Shown here: piece by piece, positions 1,117 through 32,794 of the stretch
Position numbering within the stretch: the first letter of the stretch is position 1
Layout of the letters: each line of letters opens with the position of its first letter
Source: a virus
Strand: one strand, 5' to 3'
IMG/VR virus record: IMGVR_UViG_3300021963_000077
Coordinates: 25,511 to 89,510 of that record
Length of the DNA stretch: 64,000 bases
Translations under genes and position numbers: made by a program
The notes under the pieces: model-generated
Seen by the model: only the letters and a program-made list of their open reading frames with translations
The model's database searches: none
What the model was told of the DNA's origin: nothing

Positions 1117-2421
1117 TTAGGCTTCTGGAGCGGCGTCAAATGTGACGCTGACAAATGCCTCTGGGCGCTTGACTGCGAGAGCCAGTCTCTGTTCTGCGAG
1201 AACAACGATTGCGTTGCGGACGAAGAAGTCTGCATGCTGTTCGCTCACGCGGATAGTTGCCTGCTCGCGGTCATACAGCTGAGCACCGGTGCCGAAGGCG
1301 CCGACGAGAGCTGTACCCTCTGGCATTGCTGGTGTGTCAATGACCGGAATTCTCCACAGCTTCGGCTCGCCACCCATGGCAACCGAAACAGCGATGAGGT
1401 ACTGGCCGTTGAGGTCCTTGGTCAGCTCGATGTCTTCCCAGTCGTTCGGGTTAAGAACGATACCGGTTGGCTCGTAGTAAGCGAGCAACGACAGCGTAGC
1501 TGCACGACGGAGTGCATCTGCCTTTGTGTCTGGTACTGGAGTTGCTGCGCCATCTGACCAGTCGTAGGTCTGGATGCCAGGTGTCTGAAGAACACCCTGC
1601 AGGTTTTCACCAGTGCCGTCACCGTTGAGGATTTGATCATCCTCTTCAAGGCGCAAGCCGTACATGAGCTCGTTGTCAATGATTGAGCGGAGCTGTGGCT
1701 CGTCAGCAAGGACGTTGCGGTGAGCAGCTTCCCAGTGAGCGAGTGTACGTACAGGAGCCTGCTCACCAACGAAGGTGAACGATGACTGTGGCTTAGCAGT
1801 GAATGCTGCACCAGTGCGCTCTGCTACAGGAGCAGCGTTGTTCGTGAAGCCAGTCATGCGGAAGTACTCAATGACAGCAGCTGTCGTGGTACGAGCCGGG
1901 AACAAGTCACGGACGCGACGTGTGCGCATCGGTGGGATGACAATCGGATCACGCTGAATGGTGCCGAATGAGCCAGGTGTGCCGGTTGGAAGCGCTGAGT
2001 AAACATCCTTCACTCCGTAGGAGGTGATGTTTGAAGCGTTCAAAACGAACGGTGCTGGCATGTTTGCGCCATTCTTGCCACCATTGAGTGACTTGAACTC
2101 TGGTGAATCTACGAATGCCTGACCGACAGACGATTTGTGGACTGGTGCAAAAGACTGACCAGCAGCAAAAGCGGCAGCTGCTGAATCGCCAGCTGGCTGC
2201 GTGCCCCACTCGTCAACCTTCTTCATCTGCTCAAGACCCTCGATGAGGCCCTTGATTTCACGGATGTCTGACATGTTGCGGTCAAAGGCTGACTTCTGAT
2301 CAGCATTGACGATAACGGTGCCATCTTCTACACGGAATGAATCGGCAATTTGCTTATTCTCCGCCATTTTTGAACGAAGCGCGCCCTGGAGCTCACTTAG
2401 TCTTGATTCGTCAAAAGACAT
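1117..2421 (-). CDS. Major capsid protein, HK97 fold, with N-terminal coiled-coil delta domain
   Basis: Start moved to ATG 2421 (MSFDESRL) after AAGGGAG SD. Motifs VRDLFP, TLAHW, QILNGDGTG, VLNPNDW, LWRIPV, FVRNAIVVLAEQRLALAVKRPEAF. Confidence 0.95.
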   Translation of the reverse strand: MSFDESRLSELQGALRSKMAENKQIADSFRVEDGTVIVNADQKSAFDRNMSDIREIKGLIEGLEQMKKVDEWGTQPAGDSAAAAFAAGQSFAPVHKSSVGQAFVDSPEFKSLNGGKNGANMPAPFVLNASNITSYGVKDVYSALPTGTPGSFGTIQRDPIVIPPMRTRRVRDLFPARTTTAAVIEYFRMTGFTNNAAPVAERTGAAFTAKPQSSFTFVGEQAPVRTLAHWEAAHRNVLADEPQLRSIIDNELMYGLRLEEDDQILNGDGTGENLQGVLQTPGIQTYDWSDGAATPVPDTKADALRRAATLSLLAYYEPTGIVLNPNDWEDIELTKDLNGQYLIAVSVAMGGEPKLWRIPVIDTPAMPEGTALVGAFGTGAQLYDREQATIRVSEQHADFFVRNAIVVLAEQRLALAVKRPEAFVSVTFDAAPEA

Positions 2422-2472
2422 TTCTTTCTCCCTTGAGAAAAATTTATGGATTGGTATTTTGAGCGACACAGG

Positions 2473-2496
2473 CGGCTTAGGTAAGCACCCAGCCCT
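2473..2496 (-). promoter_or_regulatory. Hairpin in MCP 5' leader, downstream of a TAGATT -10-like hexamer
   Basis: Minus strand GGCT-GGGT-gctt-ACCT-AAGCC. An upstream 7-bp inverted repeat ACAGACT/AGTCTGT lies at ~2516-2535. Confidence 0.35.
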
Positions 2497-2554
2497 TACG
2501 TCAAATAACAATCTAACAGACTTTATATAGTCTGTAGTGAAAGGTAATAGATAT

Positions 2555-5700: not shown

Positions 5701-6345
5701 CAGAGCACCAGATATACGGCGAGGCCGTACCGCTGATGGTATTACTCTTGGCGTTGATGGGCGCTCAAATGCAGTTCCCTCTTGCACTAGACCATCTGAA
5801 TCACCATCAACAGCATTTGGATCATATGGTTCAGTATTTCTAGATATACGGCGAAGCTTTCTTCCCAGTGCTTTAGTATCCTGCGTTTGACCAGACTTTG
5901 AAGATTTGCTCTTCCATGGGTGACCTTCAGGCAGCAGGTCCGAATCTCCAACATAACGAAGATTTGTTGGTTTACCCTTATCAAGCATTTTGAGGAATGC
6001 GTTTACGCGTCCGTATGCCCACTGGTTGCGAGACATGCCTGGTCTGTGTGAGCTTGAATAAGCACCAGCGCCGCGCCTAAATACCGCCTTTAGCGTACCA
6101 ACGCTTGCCATGGCGTGACTTGGCCGGCCAAGTTCAGACATCTTCTTGTTGTGGATACGTACTTTTACCTGAAGTGCTCTAACTATGTCTTGTGACAGAT
6201 CTATATCTTTTGCGCTTGACGCAGAAGACGCTGAACCTCTCTGGTTTTTAGAGGATCCAACGATTCGTTCGGATGGTTTTGATGGGGTTGCAGCTAGGCG
6301 GTCTTTTCTAGCCTTGCGCATTTTTTTGTTATTTTCACTCATCAT
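2740..6345 (-). CDS. Modular polyprotein: N-terminal HRPG/WAYGRV domain, DGD cassette, HicA-like domain, C-terminal Zeta-toxin-like P-loop kinase
   Basis: GGAPGSGKTT, HVDIDEMKQLIPEY, VVFDSS, RIRNRKQETGRSVP (Zeta-like). AIDQGFTITHSQKG...PGDNRKLKNIESQFEAIG (HicA-like). Five SG[AS]M-type linkers. Confidence 0.75.
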   Translation of the reverse strand: MMSENNKKMRKARKDRLAATPSKPSERIVGSSKNQRGSASSASSAKDIDLSQDIVRALQVKVRIHNKKMSELGRPSHAMASVGTLKAVFRRGAGAYSSSHRPGMSRNQWAYGRVNAFLKMLDKGKPTNLRYVGDSDLLPEGHPWKSKSSKSGQTQDTKALGRKLRRISRNTEPYDPNAVDGDSDGLVQEGTAFERPSTPRVIPSAVRPRRISGALRVEDIAQLRRGTRTTPQPETTAQAMKRIQDPKLKKWVNEAIDQGFTITHSQKGEVWMHSPYIDEPSIFSGKPGDNRKLKNIESQFEAIGFVSSEKLESLPASRLEAVFGFRSPKEILSATPDEMRASLRRIDNPDGEDALSPEQQKAQQSKLYSIINELRSGYLDPESGQLNLPEDFDSFSKLAAIYDLSEDDKNSLRSLVAQSFGDAVAARYEDEDLREPRKNKNVSGSMSKRRIAGAMSVTPPPSSDQDPWDDALERLVEDEYERAYEELIESVEQAAKDDESFFDDAINSYDIWKDSPFANPTWVEREWIEDQPNRYAPEPPELKDPESIDWDKMLAAIDSDLDDDDRTWDDISDEISTSQEKRKQLRNAWSGRSKASQQKRADLWNQFTSEDVWLQELADEYSTPRSILRSALLKAGQESGMDKDDVERAINAAERSWIKRRDAYEVNKANAEIDAEIDALGATVPRSIKAIDEKIRRLNRKLDRVKNARNQASAEYQASRRAYTRAMVLGSWLYETKPVRGDGESSEDFAFRMYQWAVDTNPTFMKLIQQLDEYAEVGSGTRGLFHGLDTKVDRLRDEKTKLEEMRKRAEERADGAVRALSPTEYRKAIQARKAQDQALLDNPMYRRFISGAMSTRNYSSKPMASTARTRTSSITPVEISALAYLDKIGGSVPKGSIVTPSGRRPSGSMQAQPSYKLNEMLDIDKRMPSTFSERDYQSGQHTMGKYGAGGRKVTDSRYDNVWREIMRGITDYVTKKRDSTDPTTLRKRAIIIGGAPGSGKTTQRLNGFDGRIPSRREAAHVDIDEMKQLIPEYNGYISRGNSSAAGATHTESQNIAFATIQEAIRKELDVVFDSSGQFNNDPGTLDRLTRAGYKIEAHYFVGDRDVLLSRIRNRKQETGRSVPEEYVDIIQANLRNIMAMEMSNFNEFSLWANDSDGEPVLLARKAMSPNGNWVVEIFDDRTKQYLSTSNLNTTMRIGEEP

Positions 6346-7360
6346 TCAGAACCATTCCAATACTGGTAGAAACAAAGCGCCTACCATCGAGCATCCTTGA
6401 CTGAACCTCAATAAATTGAATTACAGAATTGTTTCTTTGAGACTTTTCTAATATAGCAATACCAGCAGACTTACCACGCATCATTCTTGTGACTCGCCTA
6501 GCAATTCTCTCTTCCGTAGCTCTTTCTCTTCGGTTGCGATCCCTCTGTGCTTGAGGTCCAATTCCTCGCCTACGACGATAATCGGATTCATTTGTGCACG
6601 GCATCCAAGCAACGCCACCACTAGTAGTTGAATATCTACGAATACCAATGCACCCGAGCTCGCGCGACCTCTTCAAGGCCGATGTCTGATTATCAAACAC
6701 ATCAGGATCCCCAGGACGGATTATCATAGGAACACCAAGAGAGTCCTTAACGTTGACAACCGTGCGAGTCGGCCATGCTGATTTCTGCGAACCCCTAGAG
6801 CGCCTATTTGGAAGATTGTCCCTCATTGCATCAAGATGTCGGATGCCTTCAACATCTTGTTCCTTTAGCACTCTGAGTACCGTTCTTAACCTCTTTATGC
6901 CTTCTTCGGTGAAGTTCATTGAGAGAGTTTCATCATCCTTTTTTACTGCGCCAGCTTGCTTGATTGCCGCAATTGCGCGCATCAGTGAGCGCCGGCGTTC
7001 TCGAGACTGGGTTTTGGAGTCTCCATACTCAAATTTCGGATCATTTAGAGCATCTTGCAGATACACCATCATGTCCGTGGAAAACTCATTCCATTCTCGC
7101 ATTGATATTCCAGATACATTAAATGTCTCTGGTTTGGCCGGCGAACGCGAATATAAGTCCTCATCAGGCTCACTATCTAGGTCCAAGTCTCCTAGAGCAT
7201 CACTTAGTTGAGGCTTTGGCGGGTTAAATCTACCCCAAGACATTGCTCCAGAAACTCTTGGTTTAGCAGGTCTTTGAAAAGGGGTTGCATCCTGAACTAG
7301 TCCGTCATTGTCACCATCAATGGCGTTTGGATCATATCTTTCAAAAATGCGACGTTTCAT
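6335..7360 (-). CDS. Protein with N-terminal DGD cassette and LGC...WMPC module
   Basis: MKRRIFERYDPNAIDGDNDGLVQDATPFQRP...RVSGAMS; RELGCIG...WMPC. Confidence 0.7.
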   Translation of the reverse strand: MKRRIFERYDPNAIDGDNDGLVQDATPFQRPAKPRVSGAMSWGRFNPPKPQLSDALGDLDLDSEPDEDLYSRSPAKPETFNVSGISMREWNEFSTDMMVYLQDALNDPKFEYGDSKTQSRERRRSLMRAIAAIKQAGAVKKDDETLSMNFTEEGIKRLRTVLRVLKEQDVEGIRHLDAMRDNLPNRRSRGSQKSAWPTRTVVNVKDSLGVPMIIRPGDPDVFDNQTSALKRSRELGCIGIRRYSTTSGGVAWMPCTNESDYRRRRGIGPQAQRDRNRRERATEERIARRVTRMMRGKSAGIAILEKSQRNNSVIQFIEVQSRMLDGRRFVSTSIGMVLNDE

Positions 7361-7644
7361 TGTTTTTTAGCACCGTTTTGTTTGCCCTTATTGTTGTCTG
7401 GTCTTTTGAGTACACCAGCTGCAATAAGAGTGTCAATATAAAGCTTCCCGACTCCAGCAGGCAATGTTGAAGCAATTTGCTGCACATTCATTATACGCAT
7501 TTGCTCTGATTGCGTGTGGTTTGAGTGGCGCGAGCCAGATTCTGGCCAGTTATTTATTTCATCACATTCTGCAATATTTTGGAAAAATAATTCACGTTTT
7601 TGTGGGTCAAACGAGTTAACTATTTTCATAATTTCTGAGTTCAT
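7357..7644 (-). CDS. Small hypothetical protein
   Basis: Start ATG 7644; ATGA overlaps with both neighbours. Confidence 0.6.
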   Translation of the reverse strand: MNSEIMKIVNSFDPQKRELFFQNIAECDEINNWPESGSRHSNHTQSEQMRIMNVQQIASTLPAGVGKLYIDTLIAAGVLKRPDNNKGKQNGAKKQ

Positions 7645-10394
7645 TTGTACCACCTAAACATTTCTGGAGTTGTTTTTATATATTGAAGTAATTCCGAGTA
7701 CTCGAACATCATTGATAGATTTGCGTCAGTTAGGCCATTCATTCCGGACTGAGCTCCATAGATGAAGTTAATGTGATGGCGGGCTGCCTCAAACCCAAGA
7801 AGCTCAGCGGCAGCTACTCCGTTTCGCCACTCACCATCTCGGTCAAAACTTAAACCAAAAATGAAATGATTGAGGTCGTGTATATGCTCAAATGGAGCTG
7901 CACCACCAGACGAAAGCAACTTAAACTCTGGATCGCGCATCCAGTCAAGAGCGATATCTAGATATGTACCACTGTCGGATATGCCGTATCGTTCCGATGT
8001 TTCTGGCAATCCAAGCTTTTCACGAATAGCCTTAATAATTGGGTTGTAATACTGAGCCAACTCATTCAGTTTATCTGAGTATGCAATTATTGAATCAGTT
8101 TGTTCTTTTGCGAATCGCCCTGCCTCGGTATCCGCAAACTCAATGTCTAAATTATTGAGCAATCCACGAGGCGTTGTGTCGTAGGGCGGATTTTCCTTTA
8201 CGTACCGATCATGCTCTTCCTTGTCATAGACAGGCGTTATTGGGGTTAGATATTTCATAAGAAAGGTCAAACCTATTCCTAGCCGGTCTGACTTTGGTGC
8301 ATTGTTTATTGTGTAGACATCTTCGCCATCTTTTGTTCTTGCTTTTAGAGTCTTACCATCCTTACTTCTTTCGGGTCTCCAAAATTCAGCAAGTTCTGTA
8401 TCTTTTATTACTTGGTTGAGTATGGCTTCGCTAATTTCACGAGCCTCGTCATCATCGGGCTGGAAAACTTCAGTCTTTATCCTGTCACGGTTTGGGCCAA
8501 ATTTATCGGCTAGGCCAGGTATTTCTGGAAGGCTCATAATTACGGACCCAGAAGGGCCTTCAGCTAGCTCAACCTCTGAAATGCGTTGCTCAGGTTTTTC
8601 AAATACTGGAAAAGCTTTTTCAAAAGCATCTTTTTGCTCTTCGTTCAGTTTTGAGAATGCAGACATTGATGCGGTTACCGCTAGTGGTCGTTCAAATGCT
8701 GTTGAGTCTTGAACTAATCCATCACCATCGCCATCTTCAGCATCTTGATCAAAGCGATCCGTTAGTGATTTTTTCTGAAGAGGAAGTTTTCTATCATCTG
8801 GACATGGTCCGGGATTGTCCCAATAATCCAAATGACCGACATAATGCTTTGTATGAGCCCTGTAGCTTTCAATCATGAACCTTACAGAATTGAACTCTTT
8901 ACAAAGACCAAGAACCTGGAGAGATCTTGCCATTTTCCATATACGCGTTCCATAAACCGAGCTTGGTGACTGACCGTTTGCAAAGTCTGGATTATCAATC
9001 CATTCTTCCTTGTCTAGATCCCACGCCAAGGCAGATGTATAAAGTCTGGCAGCTTCAGCTACAGAGTCAGTAAACTCTTTGTTTTTGCGGAGTTTTTTAA
9101 TGTTGGTTTTGGCTAGGTTGTAGCGTTCTCCATACGCTATTGATCCGCGGTCAATGGGAAATGTCCACCAGTCATAATGCTCTGAGTGAAATTTTTTCCA
9201 GTTTGAATTATTAGCATATTCTTTGAATTTAGCAACTTGTGCTTTTTGATCTTTTATTACTGATTCATCTCCACCATATGGAGCATCATTCCAATAGCGT
9301 TTTTTCTTCTTTTTTGCTCTGAACTTAGAGAGCCAGTTTGACCCAGTTTTTTTCCGTTTTGCTGGTGAGGAAGGGCCTTGTGCGCCAAAATCAAGCGTCA
9401 TCTGCACGGGTTTTGATGGACGAGAGTTTGGAGCATCGGCGGAGCCAAGGGAGTCAATAAATGACTCATCTAGCGCTGTCTCCTCGAGCGCATCGTAGTC
9501 TTCCTGTAGTTCTTTTAACTCTTCTATGGATAGACCCGCAAAATGCGGATACATCCTATTGAGCGTATCTTCACTAATAGATGGGTCAAAACGGTCTGAG
9601 ACATAGTCTTCAAAGTCAATCAAGTCATCTGTAGAAAAAGCATCAATCAGCCTGAATGGCTGAGCAAAATCATCAAGCTCATCTGTTCCAAAAGAATCAT
9701 CCGGTAGCAAGTTTCGGTCAAGAATGTAACCGCGCACAAGATCTGCATGCTGTGAGTCTGGAAGACTTGCTAGATTTGGATAGTAATCAGCTAGAGATTC
9801 TCTATTTTCCCCAGATAATATTGCCTCAACATACTCAGGCACTACATCAAAATCGTCTGAATTTAATTTTGATAGTATCTTTTTATATGCTTTTAAGGCT
9901 GACTCATCCTCGTCATTTATTCTTGCCATTGCCCCGACGATGCGCCTATTTGATGAAGGTCTTTTACCCATACGAGGTTTATCTGGTCTTTGCCAAGATG
10001 TTCCATCTTGAACAAAGCCATCTTCATCACCGTCAATAGCATTTGGGTCAAACCGCTGATTCAGGTTCCGTATGCGTGGAAGAGCCTTTCCAGAAACCTC
10101 AGCACTGACTAGTCCTCCACCTGGGAGGGTATCAATACCTAAAGGGCCACGCTCCGAAAGATTCTCCCAGTTGGAACCACGTTTTTTGCGTTTGGTTTTG
10201 CGATATACCTGATCAGGTATATCGTCGGTAGCCTTGTATTCGCGCTTTGGGTTTGACGTTTCAGCTTCGTTTGAGATTCGCTGAAGAGTTTCGTGCGAAT
10301 CGCACGGCATCCAGTTGCCGTCACCGTCTTGGTGAGCACCAGAGCAGCCTAGATACCCTGCAACCTTAAGAGCTTCCTCTTTACTGCTTGCCAT
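7641..10394 (-). CDS. Modular polyprotein: LGC...WMPC module, two DGD cassettes, OGFr/DUF1810-like domain, C-terminal HDxxH domain
   Basis: 917 aa; HYDWWTFPID...RIWKMARSLQVLG; HIHDLNHFIFGLSFDRDGE. Confidence 0.7.
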   Translation of the reverse strand: MASSKEEALKVAGYLGCSGAHQDGDGNWMPCDSHETLQRISNEAETSNPKREYKATDDIPDQVYRKTKRKKRGSNWENLSERGPLGIDTLPGGGLVSAEVSGKALPRIRNLNQRFDPNAIDGDEDGFVQDGTSWQRPDKPRMGKRPSSNRRIVGAMARINDEDESALKAYKKILSKLNSDDFDVVPEYVEAILSGENRESLADYYPNLASLPDSQHADLVRGYILDRNLLPDDSFGTDELDDFAQPFRLIDAFSTDDLIDFEDYVSDRFDPSISEDTLNRMYPHFAGLSIEELKELQEDYDALEETALDESFIDSLGSADAPNSRPSKPVQMTLDFGAQGPSSPAKRKKTGSNWLSKFRAKKKKKRYWNDAPYGGDESVIKDQKAQVAKFKEYANNSNWKKFHSEHYDWWTFPIDRGSIAYGERYNLAKTNIKKLRKNKEFTDSVAEAARLYTSALAWDLDKEEWIDNPDFANGQSPSSVYGTRIWKMARSLQVLGLCKEFNSVRFMIESYRAHTKHYVGHLDYWDNPGPCPDDRKLPLQKKSLTDRFDQDAEDGDGDGLVQDSTAFERPLAVTASMSAFSKLNEEQKDAFEKAFPVFEKPEQRISEVELAEGPSGSVIMSLPEIPGLADKFGPNRDRIKTEVFQPDDDEAREISEAILNQVIKDTELAEFWRPERSKDGKTLKARTKDGEDVYTINNAPKSDRLGIGLTFLMKYLTPITPVYDKEEHDRYVKENPPYDTTPRGLLNNLDIEFADTEAGRFAKEQTDSIIAYSDKLNELAQYYNPIIKAIREKLGLPETSERYGISDSGTYLDIALDWMRDPEFKLLSSGGAAPFEHIHDLNHFIFGLSFDRDGEWRNGVAAAELLGFEAARHHINFIYGAQSGMNGLTDANLSMMFEYSELLQYIKTTPEMFRWYK

Positions 10395-24204: not shown

Positions 24205-24429
24205 TTACTCAGAAATGATTTCTTCTGATGCAGAGGTTTCTTCTGTAGCAACTTCTTCAACTGCATCCGCAACTTGTGGCTCCGCAACTGCCTCTGCGAC
24301 CGCCTCTTCAACAGCTTCAACCTTAGGTTCACGACGCTTTCTCGTCTTAAATTCCTTTAGTTCTTCTGCCTTATTTTCAACAGCGATCATAAATCCAGCG
24401 GGTCCTGGTTGTGACTTCTTCTTCATCAC
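24205..24429 (-). CDS. Small protein, basic N-terminus and Glu/Ala-rich C-terminus
   Basis: ORF overlapping the upstream stop. Confidence 0.55.
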   Translation of the reverse strand: MMKKKSQPGPAGFMIAVENKAEELKEFKTRKRREPKVEAVEEAVAEAVAEPQVADAVEEVATEETSASEEIISE

Positions 24430-25838
24430 TTCTCCGTTTCGTCAACGCCGTGCTCAGTTGCGAGCATTTCAAATTCCATTAGAGATGCAAGGAAGCTTGC
24501 TTCTTCAGACTTTTCTCCGCCAGAGAACTTCTTCTTAACATCTTCTGGCACCCAATTACTAGGAATGAGTTCGTCAAGACCGAGCGACATGGCTCGCTTC
24601 ATGATGTGAGCCTTCGTGGCTTCTTTGTCCTTTGCGCGGCCATATGCCTGAACTGCGTTCCTAAGGTCGGCTTCATCCTTAATTGGGTATGAACCATCTG
24701 GTAAGGCATAGCCTTGCTTGGCCATTGACATTCTTGACTCTTCGCTGTAAGCACGCTTGAGCGCAATCTCCGCTGCCTCTGCTTCTATTTCTGAAGCTTC
24801 TTCCTGCGTGTACTCGTCGTAACCAAGAATTTCGCCAGACAATGAAACAAAGACATCATATGACTTTCCGTCAATGCCCTCTATCTCAACTGCATAGCTG
24901 TCGTATCCCTCAAAGATGTCTGGCTCAATTGCAACAACATCGCCCATAACGCTCTTTGTTGCGATATCTGCTGCTTCCTCAAAGCCAATCATCTTGTTGC
25001 CCTCAAGGGCCGACTTGACTTGAAGTACATCCTGATTCAAAAGCTGCCATCCGAGGCACTCACCGGTCTCGCCGTCAAAAAATGCCTCAACAGGACGACC
25101 GTCTTTGCGCTCAATGTCAACAACAAATAGGTCAGCCTTGTCGGAGAATCCAGAATCAAGGACTTTGCCACTAAACATATCTTCAGCAATTCCTTCAATT
25201 TCAAGAAGACCAGGCATTGAACCCTCAGATACGCAGCCGCCTGGGCAGTTATCGCAAACCGAGGACCCACCAGGATAAACCTTGCGCTCAAATGCGCACA
25301 TGAAAGCTTCCTCGTCAAAGTCAGCTGACTTATAGCCCATTGAGTTCATACGGCGCATACGCATCTTCTTGCGCATGGCGACCATGTCTACTTCTTCTTC
25401 TTCTTCTTCGTCTTCGTCTTCGTCTTCTTCTGACATTTCATCAGATTCTTCTTCAGACTCGGCATCCATGGACTCGTCGTCCATCTCTTCCTCGTCGTCC
25501 ATCTCGTCTTCGTCTTTTTCGGCCATGAACTCAAGGATCGCTTTTACATAAGCATCATCGTCCATATCTTCATCGTCAAGTTCTTCACCCATGGCCATGT
25601 AGTCTTCAACCATTTTCTTTGGGGTCTTCTTCTTGCGGACTGGAGCCATTGGCATTGCGTCCTCATCGTCCTCGTCTGAGCCCCACATGTATCCACCCTT
25701 GACAGATGTAGCCATAGCTCCGCACTTTCCGCAGACCTTTGCGCCGGGCTCATAGCCACATTCAGATAGATCTAGACCCTTGGCACACTGGATGATTTCA
25801 CCGTCTGCATCTAGTTTGACTATAGCTTTTTCGTCCAT
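24426..25838 (-). CDS. Acidic protein with Cys clusters, two PepSY-like domains and a C-terminal ALPDGSYPI module (DUF6582-like)
   Basis: Start ATG 25838 (TAATG overlap). IGFEEAADIA...GDVVAIE...YAVEIEGIDGKSYDVFVSLSGEILG plus a preceding copy ending FDGETGECLG. Confidence 0.65.
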   Translation of the reverse strand: MDEKAIVKLDADGEIIQCAKGLDLSECGYEPGAKVCGKCGAMATSVKGGYMWGSDEDDEDAMPMAPVRKKKTPKKMVEDYMAMGEELDDEDMDDDAYVKAILEFMAEKDEDEMDDEEEMDDESMDAESEEESDEMSEEDEDEDEEEEEEVDMVAMRKKMRMRRMNSMGYKSADFDEEAFMCAFERKVYPGGSSVCDNCPGGCVSEGSMPGLLEIEGIAEDMFSGKVLDSGFSDKADLFVVDIERKDGRPVEAFFDGETGECLGWQLLNQDVLQVKSALEGNKMIGFEEAADIATKSVMGDVVAIEPDIFEGYDSYAVEIEGIDGKSYDVFVSLSGEILGYDEYTQEEASEIEAEAAEIALKRAYSEESRMSMAKQGYALPDGSYPIKDEADLRNAVQAYGRAKDKEATKAHIMKRAMSLGLDELIPSNWVPEDVKKKFSGGEKSEEASFLASLMEFEMLATEHGVDETEK

Positions 25839-26032
25839 TACGACTCCTTGTATTGCATTGACTTTGTCAGGCAACCTTTGGGATTAGTGCATCCTCCACA
25901 TGGTTGCATTCTTTTTTCGCCTGTAACCATGCAGTGATACTTATGTTGAAGATTGTTTGAACCTATTGGTTTAGAATAACCCATTTGAGCCCCACTCTGT
26001 GGGTACTTTGGTGATTTCTTATTCTTTGCCAT
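25838..26032 (-). CDS. Small Cys-rich protein
   Basis: HCMVTGEKRMQPCGGCTNPKGC. Confidence 0.55.
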   Translation of the reverse strand: MAKNKKSPKYPQSGAQMGYSKPIGSNNLQHKYHCMVTGEKRMQPCGGCTNPKGCLTKSMQYKES

Positions 26033-26076
26033 GTGGATCAAAATCCTAATCTGTATAACGACTGGATCATTTTATA

Positions 26077-27150
26077 CTAACCCGAATACCGTAGCTTTGG
26101 TGGCTTCTTGATCCGAGGTCTAGCTTTTTCAGCATTCCTCAATGCTTCGAGCATTTTGGCTCTGTTGATCTTGACATCCACGATTCGCATACCAAATTTT
26201 TCAGCTGCTTCCGCCTCGGAGTGATTGCTGAGGTAGAGCAAGAAGCTTTTCGCATTGGGTGTCAATACTTGTGGATGATTATTAATTAAATTAATGATTT
26301 CTGTATTAACGCCTTCTAGTTTCTGATCTGCTTCAGTATCAATGATGCGATTGTCTGGAGTGTTGAGATTAAATTCTTCGTTATATCGTTTAATAAATTT
26401 ACCGACTAACGCTTGGCTAACTTTTAAAGCCTCAGCAATTTTTTCGTATGATATTCCGTACTGTGAAAAAGTGTACATTAATTGACCTTTTTCCAGAGAC
26501 GATAAATCACTTAACCCAATGTCAAAATCCCTTACAGATCTGTCCACGGTTGATTTGTCTACACCGAATGCCTTGGAAACTTCATCTTTGCTAAATCCAT
26601 ATTTTCTAGCAACTGAAATAATTTTACGCTTTTGCTTAAAAACGCTTCTAGCAGAAATGTTATTTTTTTTCAAAACGACAGAAACATAGTCGCTTGTCAC
26701 TCCAACATCCTGCGCAATTTGATTTGGCCCAATGCCGAGTCTTGCCTGTCTTACGATTTCTTTGATGCGCCCGCTGCGATCCACATTTGAAGTGCTTACA
26801 TTTCCTAGCTTTTGTTTATTACGTGAGGCGCGCCTAACGGTCGCAATGCTTACTCCATATTTCTTAGCTAGGGCTTTTGCTATCTCGGCTCGCTCTTTTG
26901 GAGTTTTGCCTTTGGCTATTTCTTCGGCCATTTCGTTGCTTCTACGCTCAAATTCAGCTACAGAAGATGCTTGGTTTACAGTTCTTCCCACTCCTGTAGT
27001 CATGCTTCCGGAGACCGCGCGACGAACTGAGGGTCGTTCAAACTGTGTTGCGTCTTGAATTAGGCCGTCGCCGTCACCATCAAATGCGTTTGAATCAAAC
27101 CTATCGGTAAGGCGCCCTAGGCGGCGTGCGTCGCCTGTGCGCCTCAGGCT
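26077..27150 (-). CDS. Multi-HTH protein; -1 frame extension carrying a DGD cassette (likely expressed as a frameshift fusion with 27144..27503)
   Basis: Five HTH-like repeats (e.g. LAKKYGVSIATVRR, IAQDVGVTSDYV). The frame is open for 49 codons upstream of ATG 27003, back to the slippery site, with no ATG/GTG/TTG in that stretch. Confidence 0.7.
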   Translation of the reverse strand, partial: SLRRTGDARRLGRLTDRFDSNAFDGDGDGLIQDATQFERPSVRRAVSGSMTTGVGRTVNQASSVAEFERRSNEMAEEIAKGKTPKERAEIAKALAKKYGVSIATVRRASRNKQKLGNVSTSNVDRSGRIKEIVRQARLGIGPNQIAQDVGVTSDYVSVVLKKNNISARSVFKQKRKIISVARKYGFSKDEVSKAFGVDKSTVDRSVRDFDIGLSDLSSLEKGQLMYTFSQYGISYEKIAEALKVSQALVGKFIKRYNEEFNLNTPDNRIIDTEADQKLEGVNTEIINLINNHPQVLTPNAKSFLLYLSNHSEAEAAEKFGMRIVDVKINRAKMLEALRNAEKARPRIKKPPKLRYSG

Positions 27151-27156
27151 TTTAAA
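27110..27156 (-). other. Programmed -1 ribosomal frameshift signal (T TTA AAA plus GC-rich stem-loop)
   Basis: Heptamer 27156-27150 is in frame; 5-nt spacer; AGGCGC (27144-27139) pairs with GCGCCT (27115-27110), with an inner GGCG/CGCC stem. Confidence 0.7.
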
Positions 27157-27503
27157 TCAAGACCGCTAGCAACAGACTTGACTACAGCACTAATTGCATC
27201 TATTGCGTCTTCGTCCAGGTAATCCATATCCTCGATAACTAAAGACTTTGTTTCCTGCTGTATGGAAACACCGTAGTAATCAAGCACGGGCTCAAGAAAA
27301 GATTTAGCCCCCATCAGGGCCTCGTCGTCGCCAGTAATCACAAGGTTTACCTTGTTCTTGCCGCCATCAGATGAATCTATGACTTCCGCCAAAAGCTCTA
27401 AGGCTTGTCTTAATTTGCCCATATTCCTGTTGCTAATAACGCGACCACTCTTTACGTCAATGTCGTTTCCATATGGTGTTGAAAGAAAAATTTTAGTTTC
27501 CAT
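27144..27503 (-). CDS. Head-module protein with KSGRVISxxN motif
   Basis: Start ATG 27503 (TAATG overlap with protease stop). VKSGRVISNRNMGKLRQAL resembles the KAGRVLS motif seen in C-terminal extensions of HK97-type proteases. Confidence 0.65.
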   Translation of the reverse strand: METKIFLSTPYGNDIDVKSGRVISNRNMGKLRQALELLAEVIDSSDGGKNKVNLVITGDDEALMGAKSFLEPVLDYYGVSIQQETKSLVIEDMDYLDEDAIDAISAVVKSVASGLDLKA

Positions 27504-30460
27504 TATCGCCTGTTCCCATAATCTCGCCATAACTGTTGAAGTCTGTTTAAATCAGCTGTTGATATTTGACCATTGTCAAAGCGCTCTAAAATTCTCTGAA
27601 CTATTTGAAATCCGCGATTTTTCCTAGCCCAATCAATTGATTGATTCTGCTGTCTTGTGAGAACCCTTTTGCCTATTTTTCCACTTTGCAGTTGCTTAAG
27701 CATGTCGTCTAGCCCTTGGCCAGATCTGGCCCCAAACTGTTTTGCGGTGTCATAGTCGAGTTCATACTGCTCAACACTGCCATCACCCATATTGAATATG
27801 ACGCGGTTTGTCTGTGGGTCATATGCGGCATCCGATACTCGCCTGCTACCTCGAGTATCAAACTTCATTAAATAACTAGGAATTGCTGGCCTGTCTGGAT
27901 TATCTTGACCCGATCCAGTCATTGACCCAGACACGGAGCGCTTGTTCTTGCGACTACGAAGAACGTCTAGGAAATCTTCCACGGCATTGGCTGGGCGAGG
28001 CTCCAAAACTGAGTTTGCGTGGATCCTCTCAGCTTCGCTTTCGCTAACTTTATGTTCTTCCGTCCTACCATTAATCAATGTAAAACGAGCAGTACCAGAC
28101 TCTTTGTCGTAGGTAGCGTCTTTTAGGATTCTTGAACCACGCGTGTCAAATGATGGAGTTTTGTTATCTTTGCTCCATCCAAACTTTTCTAGGTGTTTTC
28201 TAGCCTCTTCGCTAAACCCTGAATATTGCGGCTTGGGGCGATTTGAAATAGATCCAGATACGCGAGGAGTTTTATCTTTTGGGTTATCACCCTCAGTACG
28301 ACGTTTCATAGAGGCAATTCGCATTTCAATTTGCCTAACTTGAGCACGTGTCATATTCATGCGTTGCGATACGTCATCGAGCGACATACCGTCCTCTGTG
28401 CGCATTTTCCAAATTTGATCACGAATTTTCTTGGCTTGGCGCATTTCAGATTGTCTCACCTCTTCACGCGTGATGCCAAAATTCTTCGCAACTTCATCCA
28501 GCGACATGCCGCCTTCTGTGCGCATTTTCCAAATCTTCTCTGGTGTCGGCTTGCCCTTTGCCATTGAACCAGATATCCGCGACCCAACTGGTACTGGTCT
28601 TTCTGGCCGTGGCCCAGGCGTTGGCGTTGGTGCAGGGCTAGGAACCGATGGTCTGACTGGTGGGCGAATTGGCTCTCTTGCTGGCTCCGGAACCTTTCGC
28701 GGTGGATTCATTGGGGGCATCATGCGAGGCGCATTTGGGCGCTCAAATGATGTGCTGTCTTGCACTAAACCGTCTTCGTCCCCATCAATTGCATTAGGAT
28801 CAAAACGATCTGTTGCCATTCTCCCCATACGTCTGAGTTTGCGACCAACAGCCTTCTCTTCTAAGAAGTTAATTGCCGTCAGTAGCGCCTCGTAGCCCTC
28901 TTCTGACATGGAGTCACTGTTTGGAACAACAAGACCATCTTCAAGACTCTTGACATCAAATCCATGATATTTAGCTACAGCACTAGCTACCTCTAGCAAT
29001 TCATCAATTTCGCTTTCGGATTGGATAAATAGATGAATTCCAGGGTTTTCACTCTTGAAAGCATCCCATGACGGCATGTCATCAATGACATATGATTTCC
29101 CACCACCACATCCACAACCACAATCATCCTTAGCCGGCTTCATGGCCACTCCGCCAAATGCCGCTCCAAAGTCATCATTGTCGTCGCCTACATATGCATT
29201 TCCTGGAGCGCTTTGTGGCTTGCCAACAGGCATGTAAATTGTCTCTGGCTTCACCGTTTCAGCATTTCCAAACATGAATTCGCCATCTTCGTAGTGATAG
29301 CCGACTCGGATTGTCTGCATATCTCCGAAGTCGTTCATGAGGTCAAAAATAACCATGTTTTTATCTGCTGTACGGATTTTTACTTTGCCGCCAAACCGTT
29401 GAGAAATAGCCTTGGCAAGGTCGTTAACACGCCCAAATGCTGGATTCATCTCCTCGTCGCCAGTATAGATACGGGATGTGTCGTAGCTAGGGTGGCCTTT
29501 TTTCTTCACATTCTGGTATCTCTCAAGGAGTCGCCGGCCTTTAGCTGCAAGCTCTGCTGCATCGGATGCATTTTTAGGAACTGGTTCACCCCATGCAGCG
29601 GCAGCTAGCGCTAGACGAGTCGGCTTGCCATTTTTGCCGACAAGTGGGCCAGATGGGTTTGTATAGAATCGCGTCAAGAACGAGCCTTTACGACGCATTT
29701 TCTCTGGTGTGTCAGCTGGGCCCTTGACGCCTGGCTTTAGATTTGCGCCTTCCTTCTGCTTAAAGTACTTGCGCCCTGCTGGCGTCAGGCCACCCTTTGG
29801 ATCCCTCAAATTTGCTGATTTGCCTTCAGGCTCAGAAGGCACGCAATTTGGCACCATTTTGCCGTTTTTGCCCTTCTTCATTCCTACCTGCTGGTAACCG
29901 GGCCAGCAAGGACTACCTGCCTTGCTTTCCGGATCGTCGGATTTGATTGAAATTGTGCCAGTCAGCTGATTGGCTCCGTGGAGAACTGGGGAAACCTCAT
30001 AGAGTTCAACCTCTTTAAGGAGATTTGCTTGCTGAACTGGGTCAAATACTGCGTCAAGGGTCTTGTAACCAATTGACCACTCTTGCTCTTCGCCAAAGAA
30101 GGCAACATTATTGAAAGCCTCACGACCACGCTCAGAACGCAAATTAAATTGCACTCTTGCATAAAGTCCACCAATTCCGGCTTTTTTCATCTTTAGCGGT
30201 AGGCGTGGATCATTCGGTGGCACCTCATATATTTCCAGAACCTTACCGATTGGCTCATTCCAGTTATGACCCCAAACAACTCTCGGCTTACGTCTTTTAA
30301 GACTTGCTCCAAAACAGTTCGGGAGGCAAATATCGCCAACAGAATCTTTATTGCCGATGCCAGCAACGAAGCATTCAACGATGCCCTGCGCTTCGTCAAC
30401 CCCGATTTGAGCTGGAATTGACTTGTATTCTGTTGCAAATAGCGATGATTGGTCAGACAT
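27503..30460 (-). CDS. HK97-family prohead protease fused to CWPGY module, GGLT..GR module (DUF6321-like), DGD cassette, 2x sigma70-region-4-like HTH and 2x KTSC-like domains
   Basis: GNKDSVGD, VVWGHNWNEPIGKV, WSIGY, LKEVELYEVSPVLHGAN (His/Ser protease motifs) in the first ~175 aa. Confidence 0.9.
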   Translation of the reverse strand: MSDQSSLFATEYKSIPAQIGVDEAQGIVECFVAGIGNKDSVGDICLPNCFGASLKRRKPRVVWGHNWNEPIGKVLEIYEVPPNDPRLPLKMKKAGIGGLYARVQFNLRSERGREAFNNVAFFGEEQEWSIGYKTLDAVFDPVQQANLLKEVELYEVSPVLHGANQLTGTISIKSDDPESKAGSPCWPGYQQVGMKKGKNGKMVPNCVPSEPEGKSANLRDPKGGLTPAGRKYFKQKEGANLKPGVKGPADTPEKMRRKGSFLTRFYTNPSGPLVGKNGKPTRLALAAAAWGEPVPKNASDAAELAAKGRRLLERYQNVKKKGHPSYDTSRIYTGDEEMNPAFGRVNDLAKAISQRFGGKVKIRTADKNMVIFDLMNDFGDMQTIRVGYHYEDGEFMFGNAETVKPETIYMPVGKPQSAPGNAYVGDDNDDFGAAFGGVAMKPAKDDCGCGCGGGKSYVIDDMPSWDAFKSENPGIHLFIQSESEIDELLEVASAVAKYHGFDVKSLEDGLVVPNSDSMSEEGYEALLTAINFLEEKAVGRKLRRMGRMATDRFDPNAIDGDEDGLVQDSTSFERPNAPRMMPPMNPPRKVPEPAREPIRPPVRPSVPSPAPTPTPGPRPERPVPVGSRISGSMAKGKPTPEKIWKMRTEGGMSLDEVAKNFGITREEVRQSEMRQAKKIRDQIWKMRTEDGMSLDDVSQRMNMTRAQVRQIEMRIASMKRRTEGDNPKDKTPRVSGSISNRPKPQYSGFSEEARKHLEKFGWSKDNKTPSFDTRGSRILKDATYDKESGTARFTLINGRTEEHKVSESEAERIHANSVLEPRPANAVEDFLDVLRSRKNKRSVSGSMTGSGQDNPDRPAIPSYLMKFDTRGSRRVSDAAYDPQTNRVIFNMGDGSVEQYELDYDTAKQFGARSGQGLDDMLKQLQSGKIGKRVLTRQQNQSIDWARKNRGFQIVQRILERFDNGQISTADLNRLQQLWRDYGNRR
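28381..28534. repeat. 120-bp-period tandem duplication encoding two sigma-R4-like HTH units
   Basis: gcgacataccgtcctctgtgcgcattttccaaat at 28381 and gcgacatgccgccttctgtgcgcattttccaaat at 28501. Confidence 0.8.
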
Positions 30461-30553
30461 TTTTCCTCCGAGTCATAGTAAATAATAACTAAGCAAACAC
30501 TGGCCTAGCGGAAGTTTATGATGAGTTTTATTAAAGTCTACTGATGACTTTTA

Positions 30554-32794
30554 TTAATCTCTGTCAAAACGCAACTTACATCTGCAATTGATTGTCAAAT
30601 GTGGCGGTGCAATGGGGTCTCCTGGGAAGCGGAGCGTATTGTTCCCCACCTCAAATTCTTCAAGCAAATCAATCGTCTTGCCTTGGAGTATTAGATGTTC
30701 TGGTCGTACACGCGTATCTTTGCGTGTAACCCAAGTCTTTGTCATTCCGCCAACTTGCTTTCCAGCAAAGTATGTTCCTGCGTTAAAAGCTGTTTGAGAC
30801 TCGTGTTCAGCAATGACCCTACGGCGCTTCATAAGAAGATTAATAAATATTGCTGCAAGAGCTGCTTTGAGCATGCCCGAGCGATCCTCATCTTCCGAAA
30901 GCGCCAGCGCTATGAGAACTGCAGCTGCGATTTCTTCTTTTGTCGTCGCATTTATTTTCTGCATTCGCTTTATTTGTTCATCAAGGTATTCATTTACTTC
31001 TTCATCATCAAGCTCAGCAGGCATGTTGGCCTTTTGCGAAGCCAAAGATGCTGCATCAGAAATTATTCCTTGAATGACAGGGCGCATGTCGTCTGATAGT
31101 TGCTTGTCCCATACTTCCGAGTCAAAGATTGCATCTATGTCCAGAGATCCAGACTGCAGGCCTTTCTTAGCCTTTGCCCCACTTGATTTTTCTAAAACGA
31201 CACGCTGTTGACGCTCAATAAATCGCTCAAGGCTACGATCAAGAATTTCTGCCCATCTATTCGAGCTTTCGTCAGCCTTAACTTCCCACTCGTCGTCCAT
31301 TTTATTTTCAGACTTGAATTGCATACCACCGTCGTATGCCGACAACAGTCCCTCTGGAGATGGTGGCATTGCTGTTTCAACTGGTGGCGCACCAGCTTCT
31401 GCTGCAAGGGCTGCAGTCATGCCCTCTTGTGGCATAGGTGGCATACCTGCTTGGCCAGCTAATGGCTGCTGAGGTGTAACCATTTGCTCGGTTCCAGGAA
31501 TCATTCCTGGTATTGCACCAGGGGCACCCATCATGTCAATTTGCTGTTGCTGCGTTGAGTCAAATGGCTTATTCGTGTAACCAATTGGCGTCAGGTTTGG
31601 ATTGGCAAGCATTGCATCCATTAAGTCGGACTCAACTGCTTTCTTACCAGTTCCTTTGCGATATTCGTTGCCACTTATGAGGCCATTTTGGAACTCATCA
31701 AGCAAGTAACGCTCTCTTTCCTGCTTATATAGAATCAGTACAGGAACGTCTGATGTATCAAAGTCAATGTAGTATTGCTCATCAAGCTCGTCCAGTCCGC
31801 GCGCCAAAGAGTCAAGATGTGGAAGCATTGTTTCGTTCCAGAAAACGCGTAATTCTTCATTTGCGTTATTAAATGTGCGGCCAGCTGCGTTGCCTATGAC
31901 TGACTCAGGAACGCCAAATGCTGCAAGGATTTCTTCTTTTGTTATTTGGCGCATCTGTATGTAGTTAGCGTCACGCGGCGATGAGCCAGTGTCTACGAAG
32001 TCAACACCCTCATCTGAGGAAAGTACAGTTACAGCTCCAGCCCTATTGAGGTTGCCACGGAATCTGTTTCTAATTTCGTCTTTATCGTCATCATCAACTT
32101 CGCCACGTAGAACTATTAATCCACCTGGACGACCGTCATTAAGCAAAAAGTTTCTGTTATATACCTTCGCCAAGTTTTCAATTTCAATTGCTATGCCAGC
32201 AGCTTCCATTGGCGTAAGTGATAGATATGGGTCTAGTGGGTGTGGACGCCTAACCCAAATGACATCCTGAGGCTTCAGTAAGACTTTTGTGCCGTTGCGC
32301 ATGTCAACTTCAAAGCCAGATACAAATGTTCTAGGATCTGGTATTGGCGCCGTGTGTTGTGGCGGTAGCAACTGAAGAGCAATTACTTTTCCATTACGCC
32401 CGCGTACCTTTTCAATGAAAGCACCACGGCTCGACATCAAAAGTTGTGATGAAAGCCTGTATCTGAATATGAACGAGTTTTCGCCCATGTTCGCTTTCGT
32501 ATTAAGTATTCTGAGCAGGTCGTTATCGCTACTGCGTAAAATCTGACCGTCTGGCGAATTGTTCTTGCGCAACATGGCTGGCAGCCGTGCTTGGTTGCCG
32601 GCGATAGCGTCAATGCAGCGATTAACCCATGTTACTTTTTGAAAGCCTTCGCGGTATGCGCGCTCAATGTCCCACGAGTCCTTGTACGGCTTTCCAGCAA
32701 GACCAGGATTGAAGGCAATTGGTGCACCAGGGGTCAGGATTGACTTGGCCTCTGGTGAATACAAAGACTTATTATCAGATGAGTTCCAAGGCAT
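30554..32794 (-). CDS. Portal protein (HK97 family) fused to C-terminal MuF head-morphogenesis domain
   Basis: Portal: WVNRCIDAIA, SLTPMEAA, NDGRPGG, EEILAAFGVP, NEYR. MuF: KTWVTRKDTRVRPEH...LRFPGDP...INCRC. Confidence 0.92.
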   Translation of the reverse strand: MPWNSSDNKSLYSPEAKSILTPGAPIAFNPGLAGKPYKDSWDIERAYREGFQKVTWVNRCIDAIAGNQARLPAMLRKNNSPDGQILRSSDNDLLRILNTKANMGENSFIFRYRLSSQLLMSSRGAFIEKVRGRNGKVIALQLLPPQHTAPIPDPRTFVSGFEVDMRNGTKVLLKPQDVIWVRRPHPLDPYLSLTPMEAAGIAIEIENLAKVYNRNFLLNDGRPGGLIVLRGEVDDDDKDEIRNRFRGNLNRAGAVTVLSSDEGVDFVDTGSSPRDANYIQMRQITKEEILAAFGVPESVIGNAAGRTFNNANEELRVFWNETMLPHLDSLARGLDELDEQYYIDFDTSDVPVLILYKQERERYLLDEFQNGLISGNEYRKGTGKKAVESDLMDAMLANPNLTPIGYTNKPFDSTQQQQIDMMGAPGAIPGMIPGTEQMVTPQQPLAGQAGMPPMPQEGMTAALAAEAGAPPVETAMPPSPEGLLSAYDGGMQFKSENKMDDEWEVKADESSNRWAEILDRSLERFIERQQRVVLEKSSGAKAKKGLQSGSLDIDAIFDSEVWDKQLSDDMRPVIQGIISDAASLASQKANMPAELDDEEVNEYLDEQIKRMQKINATTKEEIAAAVLIALALSEDEDRSGMLKAALAAIFINLLMKRRRVIAEHESQTAFNAGTYFAGKQVGGMTKTWVTRKDTRVRPEHLILQGKTIDLLEEFEVGNNTLRFPGDPIAPPHLTINCRCKLRFDRD

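Follow-up and report, generated by a model that had tools for sequence, protein, structure and literature searches.

The 64,000-nucleotide stretch of DNA analyzed here (the window) comprises positions 25,511 to 89,510 of the 89,510-base IMG/VR virus record IMGVR_UViG_3300021963_000077, a single metagenome contig of an aquatic phage, about 60% complete by CheckV. Its head module contains a candidate programmed -1 ribosomal frameshift site, located on the minus strand at the 3′ end of a short open reading frame (ORF), termed ORF-A (27144..27503, 119 aa plus stop). A slip at this site would join ORF-A to a protein with five helix-turn-helix (HTH) stretches. ORF-A begins at ATG 27503 (119 aa) or at ATG 27530 (128 aa), and its end reads ...GGT CTT GAT TTA AAA GCC TGA in the zero frame, giving the C-terminal sequence ...GLDLKA. 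The slippery heptamer T_TTA_AAA (27150..27156) stands in the X_XXY_YYZ register of the ORF-A frame, and the zero-frame stop codon TGA (27144..27146) follows one codon past it, overlapping a CTG of the -1 frame (CTGA). The -1 frame is closed by a TGA at 27159..27157 and is then open from TTT 27156 to a stop at 26077 (359 codons). Its earliest ATG, GTG, or TTG is ATG 27003, at codon 52, which leaves 51 codons without a start before it. This startless extension (27004..27150, minus strand) encodes a SLRRTGDARRLGRL linker, followed by a recurrent DGD module (about 27102..27031) and an SGSM motif, and leads into a multi-HTH part of 308 codons plus stop (26077..27003, minus strand), the presumed DNA-binding cargo. 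The conceptual fusion comprises 118 + 357 = 475 aa with the junction ...GLDLK/SLRR.... The original prediction, made from the sequence letters, had described this layout correctly: the heptamer, the stop, and the GC stem 5 nt after the heptamer are all present, the -1 frame opens at the heptamer after a TGA and lacks an early start, the -1 peptide given was exact and in frame with the 308-aa HTH ORF, and a fusion of about 475 aa, with an LK/SL site written by the slip itself, is what the frames encode.

The slip site is located downstream of the portal gene, between the prohead protease and major head protein genes. The portal-MuF fusion (32794..30554, minus strand) and a 985-aa prohead protease polyprotein (27503..30460, minus strand) were both assigned by Pfam and PHROG matches; the latter consists of an N-terminal Peptidase_S78 domain, DUF6321, one DGD module (28786), and HTHs. 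The protease stop codon TAA overlaps the ATG of ORF-A (TAATG), overlaps of the ATGA and TAATG kinds being usual in this operon. The HTH ORF is followed on the minus strand by about 23 kb of other large ORFs, and the major head protein gene (2511..1117, minus strand) was identified by a match to phrog_10 (E 4e-70). The large ORFs that lie between portal and protease on one side and the major head protein gene on the other take up about 25 kb (window 1117-32794, minus strand). A blastn search in distant mode with 26000..30500 against 50,697 phage records gave no match. An alignment of ORF-A found no relative in GTDB genomes, and there is therefore no prophage or host lead.

Heptamers of the X_XXY_YYZ type are common in frame, with 42 occurrences in the 15,292 codons of the 22 long ORFs of the window. 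What goes beyond chance is the place and conservation of this heptamer, and not its mere presence. Given Asp-Leu-Lys and the codon usage of the window, the probability of GAT-TTA-AAA is 0.039. Over both strands of the window, TTTAAAA occurred three times, compared with 17.06 +/- 4.14 occurrences in dinucleotide shuffles. Downstream of the heptamer, a G+C-rich two-tier hairpin (27108..27146, minus strand), whose strong G-C stem begins 5 nt past the heptamer, is a candidate frameshift stimulator. A 45-nt piece containing it has a folding free energy (dG) of -22.1 kcal/mol (z -2.1 to -2.45), and 5 of 200 shuffled sequences folded as well.

Conservation of the candidate slip site in related phages

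The split layout was compared in five loci, which are independent contigs from different samples: the window, L004 (94% ORF-A identity), L005, and L011 and L012, the last two found by a metagenome scan and sharing 55% ORF-A identity. All five retain GAT TTA AAA GCC T(G/A)A, across two clades that share 55% ORF-A identity; the stop is TAA in L011 and TGA in the others, and both L011 and L012 read ...CAC GAT TTA AAA GCC before it. In none of the five does a canonical start lie between the heptamer and the -1 stop that precedes it. The -1 frame of L012 consists of 368 codons encoding K-S-L, a linker, a DGD module, and HTH domains (with HTH_58, HTH_23, and Mor matches). The earliest ATG, GTG, or TTG of the -1 frame is a GTG at codon 52 in L004 and L005, and lies at codon 71, inside the first HTH, in L012. 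ATG 27003 of the window is therefore not a conserved start, since L004 and L005 have GTG in its place and L012 has no counterpart. Heptamer, stop, and startless frame are thus kept in relatives, and no relative of this locus type carries one continuous ORF, an outcome that the original prediction had named as a refutation.

The slip site is also the best-preserved stretch of the region. Over 1357 aligned nt, the window shares 50.5% identity with L012, and the longest identical run, 18 nt from 27158, falls on the slip site, whereas the next longest runs are 11, 10, and 9 nt. The two other nearby in-frame heptamers served as controls, T_TTA_AAC at 27557..27551 and T_TTA_AAA at 26428..26422; both were lost in L004 and L005, where non-slippery synonymous codons are found instead. 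A slip at 26428..26422, inside the HTH ORF, would stop after two codons, and L004 and L005 have GCC TTG AAG there. At the protein level, five further homologues (67-91% identity) are all 119 aa long and end in [DN]LK[AV]; these are five of the seven rows returned by a homologous-protein search, the other two being the window's own protein. P0002 and P0011 end in LKA, also at the protein level. Neither of these two, used as single IMG/VR queries, found a relative, and the -1 product as an IMG/VR query found only two contigs, both already known.

The hairpin was found at the same place in the window, L004, L005, and L012, and hence in both clades. Its dG is -25.6 in L004 (z -3.78), -25.9 in L005 (z -4.17), and -18.2 in L012 (z -0.7 to -1.32). 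A consensus fold of the four sequences (-22.29 kcal/mol) contains 14 pairs in the hairpin, one of them compensatory. The hairpin, whose conservation the original prediction had also marked for checking, keeps its position in four loci, but in L012 the fold shows no significant excess over shuffles. No Rfam match was obtained for 26800..27400 at E up to 1.

The split layout is not an assembly error. Logan contigs from other studies bridge 27144..27156, one (X5) covering 27023..27267 with no differences and no gaps, and another (X9) covering 27110..27531 with one difference and no gaps; run X1, a possible source of the record, at a depth of 52.6, shows no indel at the site. Among 24 sequencing runs listed as holders of the sequence, none was of RNA. 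The indel that the original prediction had named as a concern is thus missing from independent data, which were compared as contigs, a form in which rare read-level variants are invisible.

Two further loci extend the comparison to other lineages. L061 represents a third lineage, in which a standalone ORF-A homologue (112 aa) ends in TAT TTA AAA TGA (L061:3327-3378), with the ATG of the next gene, encoding a small Cys-rich protein, in an ATGA overlap. A 10-bp, G+C-rich hairpin follows 7 nt downstream (dG -20.6, z -3.96), and none of 200 shuffles folded as well. Either the frameshift cassette is older than its cargo, or this is ordinary coupling gated by a hairpin, beside a persisting heptamer. 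In L108 (3263-3330), a 462-aa ORF with Peptidase_S78 and an ORF-A domain ends in CAA AAA AAA TAA, an A8 run. The -1 frame there has 990 open codons; its codon five is TTG, a DGD-like module follows after about 50 codons, and a weak hairpin lies 6 nt downstream. L108, if real, is a possible fourth lineage with another slippery sequence at the same junction, as is the case for tail chaperone frameshifts.

Two other candidate frameshifts near the site were rejected. The T_TTA_AAC at 27557..27551 falls within the final 17 codons of the protease ORF (985 aa), at the point from which the ORF-A frame is open (with a TGA just before), and a second frameshift joining the protease ORF to ORF-A was considered there; L004 and L005 have GAC TTA AAC, and L011 and L012 lack the heptamer, which is probably there by chance. 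A frameshift between a 64-aa Cys-rich ORF (26032..25838, with an HC..C..C motif) and the next ORF, a large acidic one (24426-25838, minus strand), was likewise rejected, as the latter begins, through a TAATG overlap, at an ATG at 25838 with an AAGGAG of its own. Separate in the window, L004, and L012, the two form one 465-aa ORF in L007, which indicates gene fission or fusion, and not a frameshift.

ORF-A homologues and the DGD module

ORF-A matched no Pfam or PHROG family. A phmmer search against 1.84 billion representatives returned 46 matches, and no ORF-A paralogue was found in the 89.5-kb record, where the next best phmmer E-value was 5.2. The 46 matches, 80 IMG/VR loci, and 18 metagenome loci were surveyed for their layout, of which there are three kinds, and yielded 58 distinct junction sequences. 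In 47 of these, the domain, placed by a hidden Markov model, ends 0-23 aa from the stop, mostly in ORFs of 460-1072 aa, a few of which are cut by the contig start. The domain is followed by more than 50 aa in frame in four junctions, four are of the split T_TTA_AAA type, one is the other standalone form (L061), and two run off the contig. Pfam confirmation of Peptidase_S78 is limited to L108, L012, and L061; in L007, a protease-like N-terminal sequence was read. On this homology, ORF-A corresponds to the C-terminal domain of S78 prohead proteases, of which it is a detached homologue. This assignment corrects the description "small head protein" given in the original prediction. An AlphaFold2 model of ORF-A (39 sequences) had a mean pLDDT (predicted local distance difference test) of 58, with about 66-80 for residues 51-113 (beta-alpha-beta-beta-alpha), and an ESM Atlas search gave scores of at most 0.77, below lead level.

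Homologues in which domain and cargo are continuous resemble the product of the proposed slip. In 8 of 13 fetched homologues, the reading frame passes from the domain through K[SAG][LI] and a linker rich in Gly and Arg to a module of the DGD type (P0010, P0024, P0025, P0043, P0027, and P0041, and, by eye only, P0046 and P0019). When the -1 fusion was aligned with six in-frame homologues, it was colinear throughout, and the slip-site Lys fell on the only Lys that is invariant among them; the S-L that comes next is shared with P0024 and P0027. The recoding proposal thus gains from homologues with the same domain order and from the alignment of the slip-site Lys with the invariant K[SAG][LI]. Among loci with in-frame continuation, L017, L018, and L021 have an in-frame G_GGA_AAA in the Gly/Lys-rich linker, about 40-49 nt past the domain, and L027 has an in-frame A_AAA_AAA; these linker heptamers may reflect linker composition alone.

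The DGD module is a sequence of about 35 aa, [RK]-rich, of the form [FY]D..A.DGD.DGL[VI]Q..T.[FW][EQ]RP. A pattern search located it in six ORFs of the window, at 28786, 27081, 21745, 8735, 7318, and 5808. In a DNA alignment of four copies, the changes fall at third codon positions; it is therefore the protein that is conserved. K[AS][LMV] precedes all five internal modules of the window, with the 27081 copy counted through the slip. The ORFs with an internal copy include large passengers of 985, 1445, 917, and 1201 aa. None of these has an ORF-A-like domain, so that the module, rather than ORF-A, is what the passengers have in common. A 98-aa ORF (7357-7653, minus strand) overlaps, through an ATGA, a 341-aa ORF (6335-7360, minus strand) whose first residues are a DGD module; the 98-aa ORF has no PHROG match and no likeness to ORF-A.

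Comparison with L004 provides evidence on whether the startless stretch is translated. Its 51 codons differ, in the -1 frame, by 13 synonymous and 7 non-synonymous changes, corresponding to a pN/pS (ratio of the non-synonymous to the synonymous proportion of changes) of 0.19 at a pS of 0.33; the values are 0.12 for ORF-A and 0.14 for the HTH part. Both other frames contain stops within the stretch. Judged by its substitutions, the startless -1 stretch is coding and under purifying selection, in agreement with the coding state ascribed to it earlier. Pfam matches of the HTH type cover five stretches of the -1 product (93-117, 132-164, 176-214, 218-261, and 305-330), and the families include HTH_23, HTH_28, and Sigma70_r4_2.

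Probable programmed frameshifting and its alternatives

The T_TTA_AAA cassette is probably a programmed -1 ribosomal frameshift site (a probability of roughly 0.65), a reading based on sequence comparison. Most ribosomes would read GAT TTA AAA GCC and stop at TGA, yielding the 119-aa ORF-A. A minority, paused by the hairpin, would slip back by one base on T_TTA_AAA and continue in the -1 frame, yielding the 475-aa product that consists of ORF-A, K/SL, an Arg-rich linker, the DGD module, and the five-HTH DNA-binding part. A presumably low rate of slippage would result in a low ratio of fusion to ORF-A, and hence might keep the copy number of the cargo low. The ORF-A part may dock to the procapsid and bring the cargo into it, as the same domain, judging from its position, would bring the protease; the C-terminal part of prohead proteases and protease-scaffold fusions offer the analogy. 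In phage HK97, the protease cleaves the capsid protein between Lys and Ser. By a similar cut after the slip-site Lys (K/S), the prohead protease might liberate a cargo that starts with the DGD module.

A more far-reaching and only tentative proposal combines these steps into a loading device of the Gag-Pol kind, in which a freed protease docking domain is fused, in a set fraction of molecules and by a conserved slip, to a DNA-binding passenger that might be built into the procapsid, cut at the slip-written Lys-Ser, and carried into the host with the DNA. If so, recoding would recur at the junction that follows the ORF-A domain, with T_TTA_AAA in two to three lineages and A8 in L108, and phages could tune the number of copies per head of each injected passenger.

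Several observations weigh against programmed frameshifting. In the available part of an E. coli survey (Sharma 2014, PMC4066793), U_UU.A_AA.G is among the efficient heptamers and U_UUA_AAA is outside the list of best motifs; E. coli may not match the host of this phage, and genes that rely on frameshifting often use weak motifs (PMC4066793). The hairpin of the window only moderately exceeds its shuffles and that of L012 does not exceed them, and the covariation term of the consensus fold is -0.31, from four sequences in two clades. The L011 contig ends 21 nt after the stop, too early for a module to be seen in it. In L061, the heptamer lies beside a true ATG, and its conservation could therefore have another cause, and the A8 run of L108 could be a homopolymer error. 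The 341-aa ORF that begins with a DGD module has its own ATG at 7360, and cargo can therefore begin with the module. Finally, four of the five split loci have a CTG overlapping the stop, which is the geometry of coupled re-initiation.

Re-initiation is the most serious of the alternatives, although an unlikely one. Ribosomes that end ORF-A at the TGA would restart at the overlapping CTG (27147..27145) and produce an unfused protein of module and HTH part, of about 356 aa, beginning just upstream of the DGD module. The heptamer would then have arisen incidentally, from a conserved Asp-Leu-Lys end or from a context for coupling that is rich in A and U. Besides the CTGA itself, the habits of the operon fit this explanation, ATGA and TAATG overlaps being usual and the DGD-first ORF at 7360 being joined to the 98-aa ORF in just this way; L061 carries TTTAAAATGA with a true ATG at the corresponding place, and coupling would also be consistent with a hairpin that keeps a start concealed until it is unfolded by translation from upstream. 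However, L011 has CTA, which is not a start codon, where the others have CTG; the CTG is not preceded by a Shine-Dalgarno sequence; and neither clade has gained an ATG, GTG, or TTG, though a single base change would suffice. Re-initiation also leaves the fixed synonymous sites of GAT, TTA, and AAA unexplained (p 0.039 per independent lineage), and an untranslated TTT AAA AGC would have to recreate by accident the K-S-L that in-frame homologues have at that column. The start at this CTG, which the original prediction had named as its own alternative, is thus contradicted by L011 but compatible with the other four loci.

A lesion inherited from an ancestor, in which a 1-nt indel split a continuous gene for ORF-A, module, and HTH part and left the downstream part decaying or accidentally translated, is very improbable. 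Continuous versions do exist in relatives, and the split form is known from few lineages. Nevertheless, the 359 downstream codons are intact in the window and L004, as are the homologous 368 codons in L012, pN/pS is 0.14-0.19 at a pS of about 0.3, and the split is common to clades whose DNA identity is just 50.5% and whose best-kept stretch is the slip site. An intact frame, purifying selection, and a shared split imply continued translation, which would amount to recoding.

Slippage of RNA polymerase, which would add or drop a base in the T3A4 run so that some mRNAs encode the fusion in frame, would have the same outcome as ribosomal frameshifting and is less probable again. A8, the run present in L108, is a length at which polymerase slippage is known, but homopolymers known to slip are longer than the three T or four A of the window. 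A downstream hairpin and the exact X_XXY_YYZ register are, moreover, features of ribosomal and not of polymerase slippage. Transcriptional slippage is among the topics of the Atkins 2016 review (PMC5009743), in the part available. An assembly or sequencing error, with a base missing or extra near 27150, might be suspected in a record that is a single metagenome contig with a short A and T run at the site, but is practically dismissed by the same layout in five contigs from different samples and by the absence of an indel in the contigs of X5, X9, and X1, in which rare variants would not show.

Comparison with known systems

Programmed -1 frameshifting recalls several known systems, which are described here from the available parts of the papers cited. 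The tail assembly chaperone genes G/GT of lambda and most long-tailed phages use a -1 frameshift (Levin 1993; Xu, Hendrix, Duda 2004; in Atkins 2016, PMC5009743). As in G/GT, the proposed slip would be a low-level -1 event near the 3′ end of a short ORF of a structural module, recoding would set a fixed molar ratio, and the product would share its N-terminal part with an abundant short protein while gaining a second function. The position is likewise conserved while the heptamer may differ (T_TTA_AAA here, A_AAA_AAA in L108). Unlike G/GT, the site lies in the head module, in the interval between protease and major capsid genes instead of that between major tail and tape measure genes, the proteins involved are unrelated, and a DNA-binding passenger of 357 aa stands in the place of the assembly chaperone domain. 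An identification of the site with G/GT itself was rejected because of its place between the S78 protease and the major head protein. The cassette also resembles those of dnaX and IS3/IS911 (insertion sequences) in combining a heptamer with a downstream structure, here a candidate one (PMC4066793). These mostly use A_AAA_AAG or A_AAA_AAA, and no clear upstream Shine-Dalgarno-like stimulator is present here. The same paper notes, for insertion sequences, that motifs of low efficiency are used where a low ratio is wanted.

Among head genes, a -1 frameshift in T7/T3 gene 10A/10B produces an extended capsid protein at a level of about 10% (PMC3185693), and the major head protein of Lactobacillus phage A2 is also subject to -1 frameshifting (references B145/B146 in PMC5009743). 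These cases share with the proposed one a head-gene -1 frameshift that yields a minor, C-terminally extended structural protein. T7/T3 and A2, however, extend the protein of the capsid shell with a short or decorative tail, whereas here a protease-derived domain would be joined to a large multi-HTH protein after a recurrent module. In a known prohead protease, the C-terminal part is also made separately, and more abundantly, from an internal in-frame start; here, in contrast, the domain has an ORF of its own, with TAATG/ATGA coupling, and would be linked to cargo through a change of frame. Polyvalent proteins are multidomain phage proteins packaged in the head (with portal-MuF fusions and HTHs), which probably undergo processing and accompany the DNA on delivery (Iyer et al. 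2017, PMC5512222). Large multidomain passengers adjoin head genes there as they do here. Unlike the present case, "frameshift" is never mentioned in the available text of that paper, and the processing protease discussed is the MPTase domain within polyvalent proteins; "prohead" occurs once, in the reference list, and "S78" is absent from the same text (PMC5512222).

The class of signal, a heptamer-type -1 frameshift, is therefore known, and it is the place and the partners that differ from the known phage cases. No description of a frameshift tied to a prohead protease, a scaffold, or packaged proteins was found in the literature search, which left most subscription journals and supplements outside its reach, so that publication elsewhere is possible. 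To our knowledge, most examples of programmed frameshifting in tailed phages come from the tail chaperone genes, with a few more in capsid genes. If a conserved slip ties a head-assembly domain of protease origin to a passenger, phages would be using recoding in a new way, for stoichiometric control, and perhaps addressing, of proteins that are packed in the head and enter the host with the DNA. The layout also has consequences for annotation, since gene callers will place the start of the cargo gene at a Met, Val, or Leu codon within it, losing the DGD module, and will label ORF-A a small hypothetical protein. The cassette is short and its predictions are clear (the junction peptide, and a mature N-terminus of Ser-Leu-Arg-Arg as opposed to Met-Arg-Arg), which makes it directly testable.

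The closest parallel in logic is the -1 frameshifting of Gag/Gag-Pol in retroviruses and totiviruses, in which an abundant assembly protein is rarely fused to an enzyme or cargo, the fusion is built into the particle, and the cargo is freed by the particle's protease. The virus realm, the fold, and the translation system of the host are all different in the present case. The signal is of the same class, U_UUA_AAN heptamers are typical of eukaryotic viruses, and the packaging and cleavage that we infer for the phage fusion would follow the same logic.

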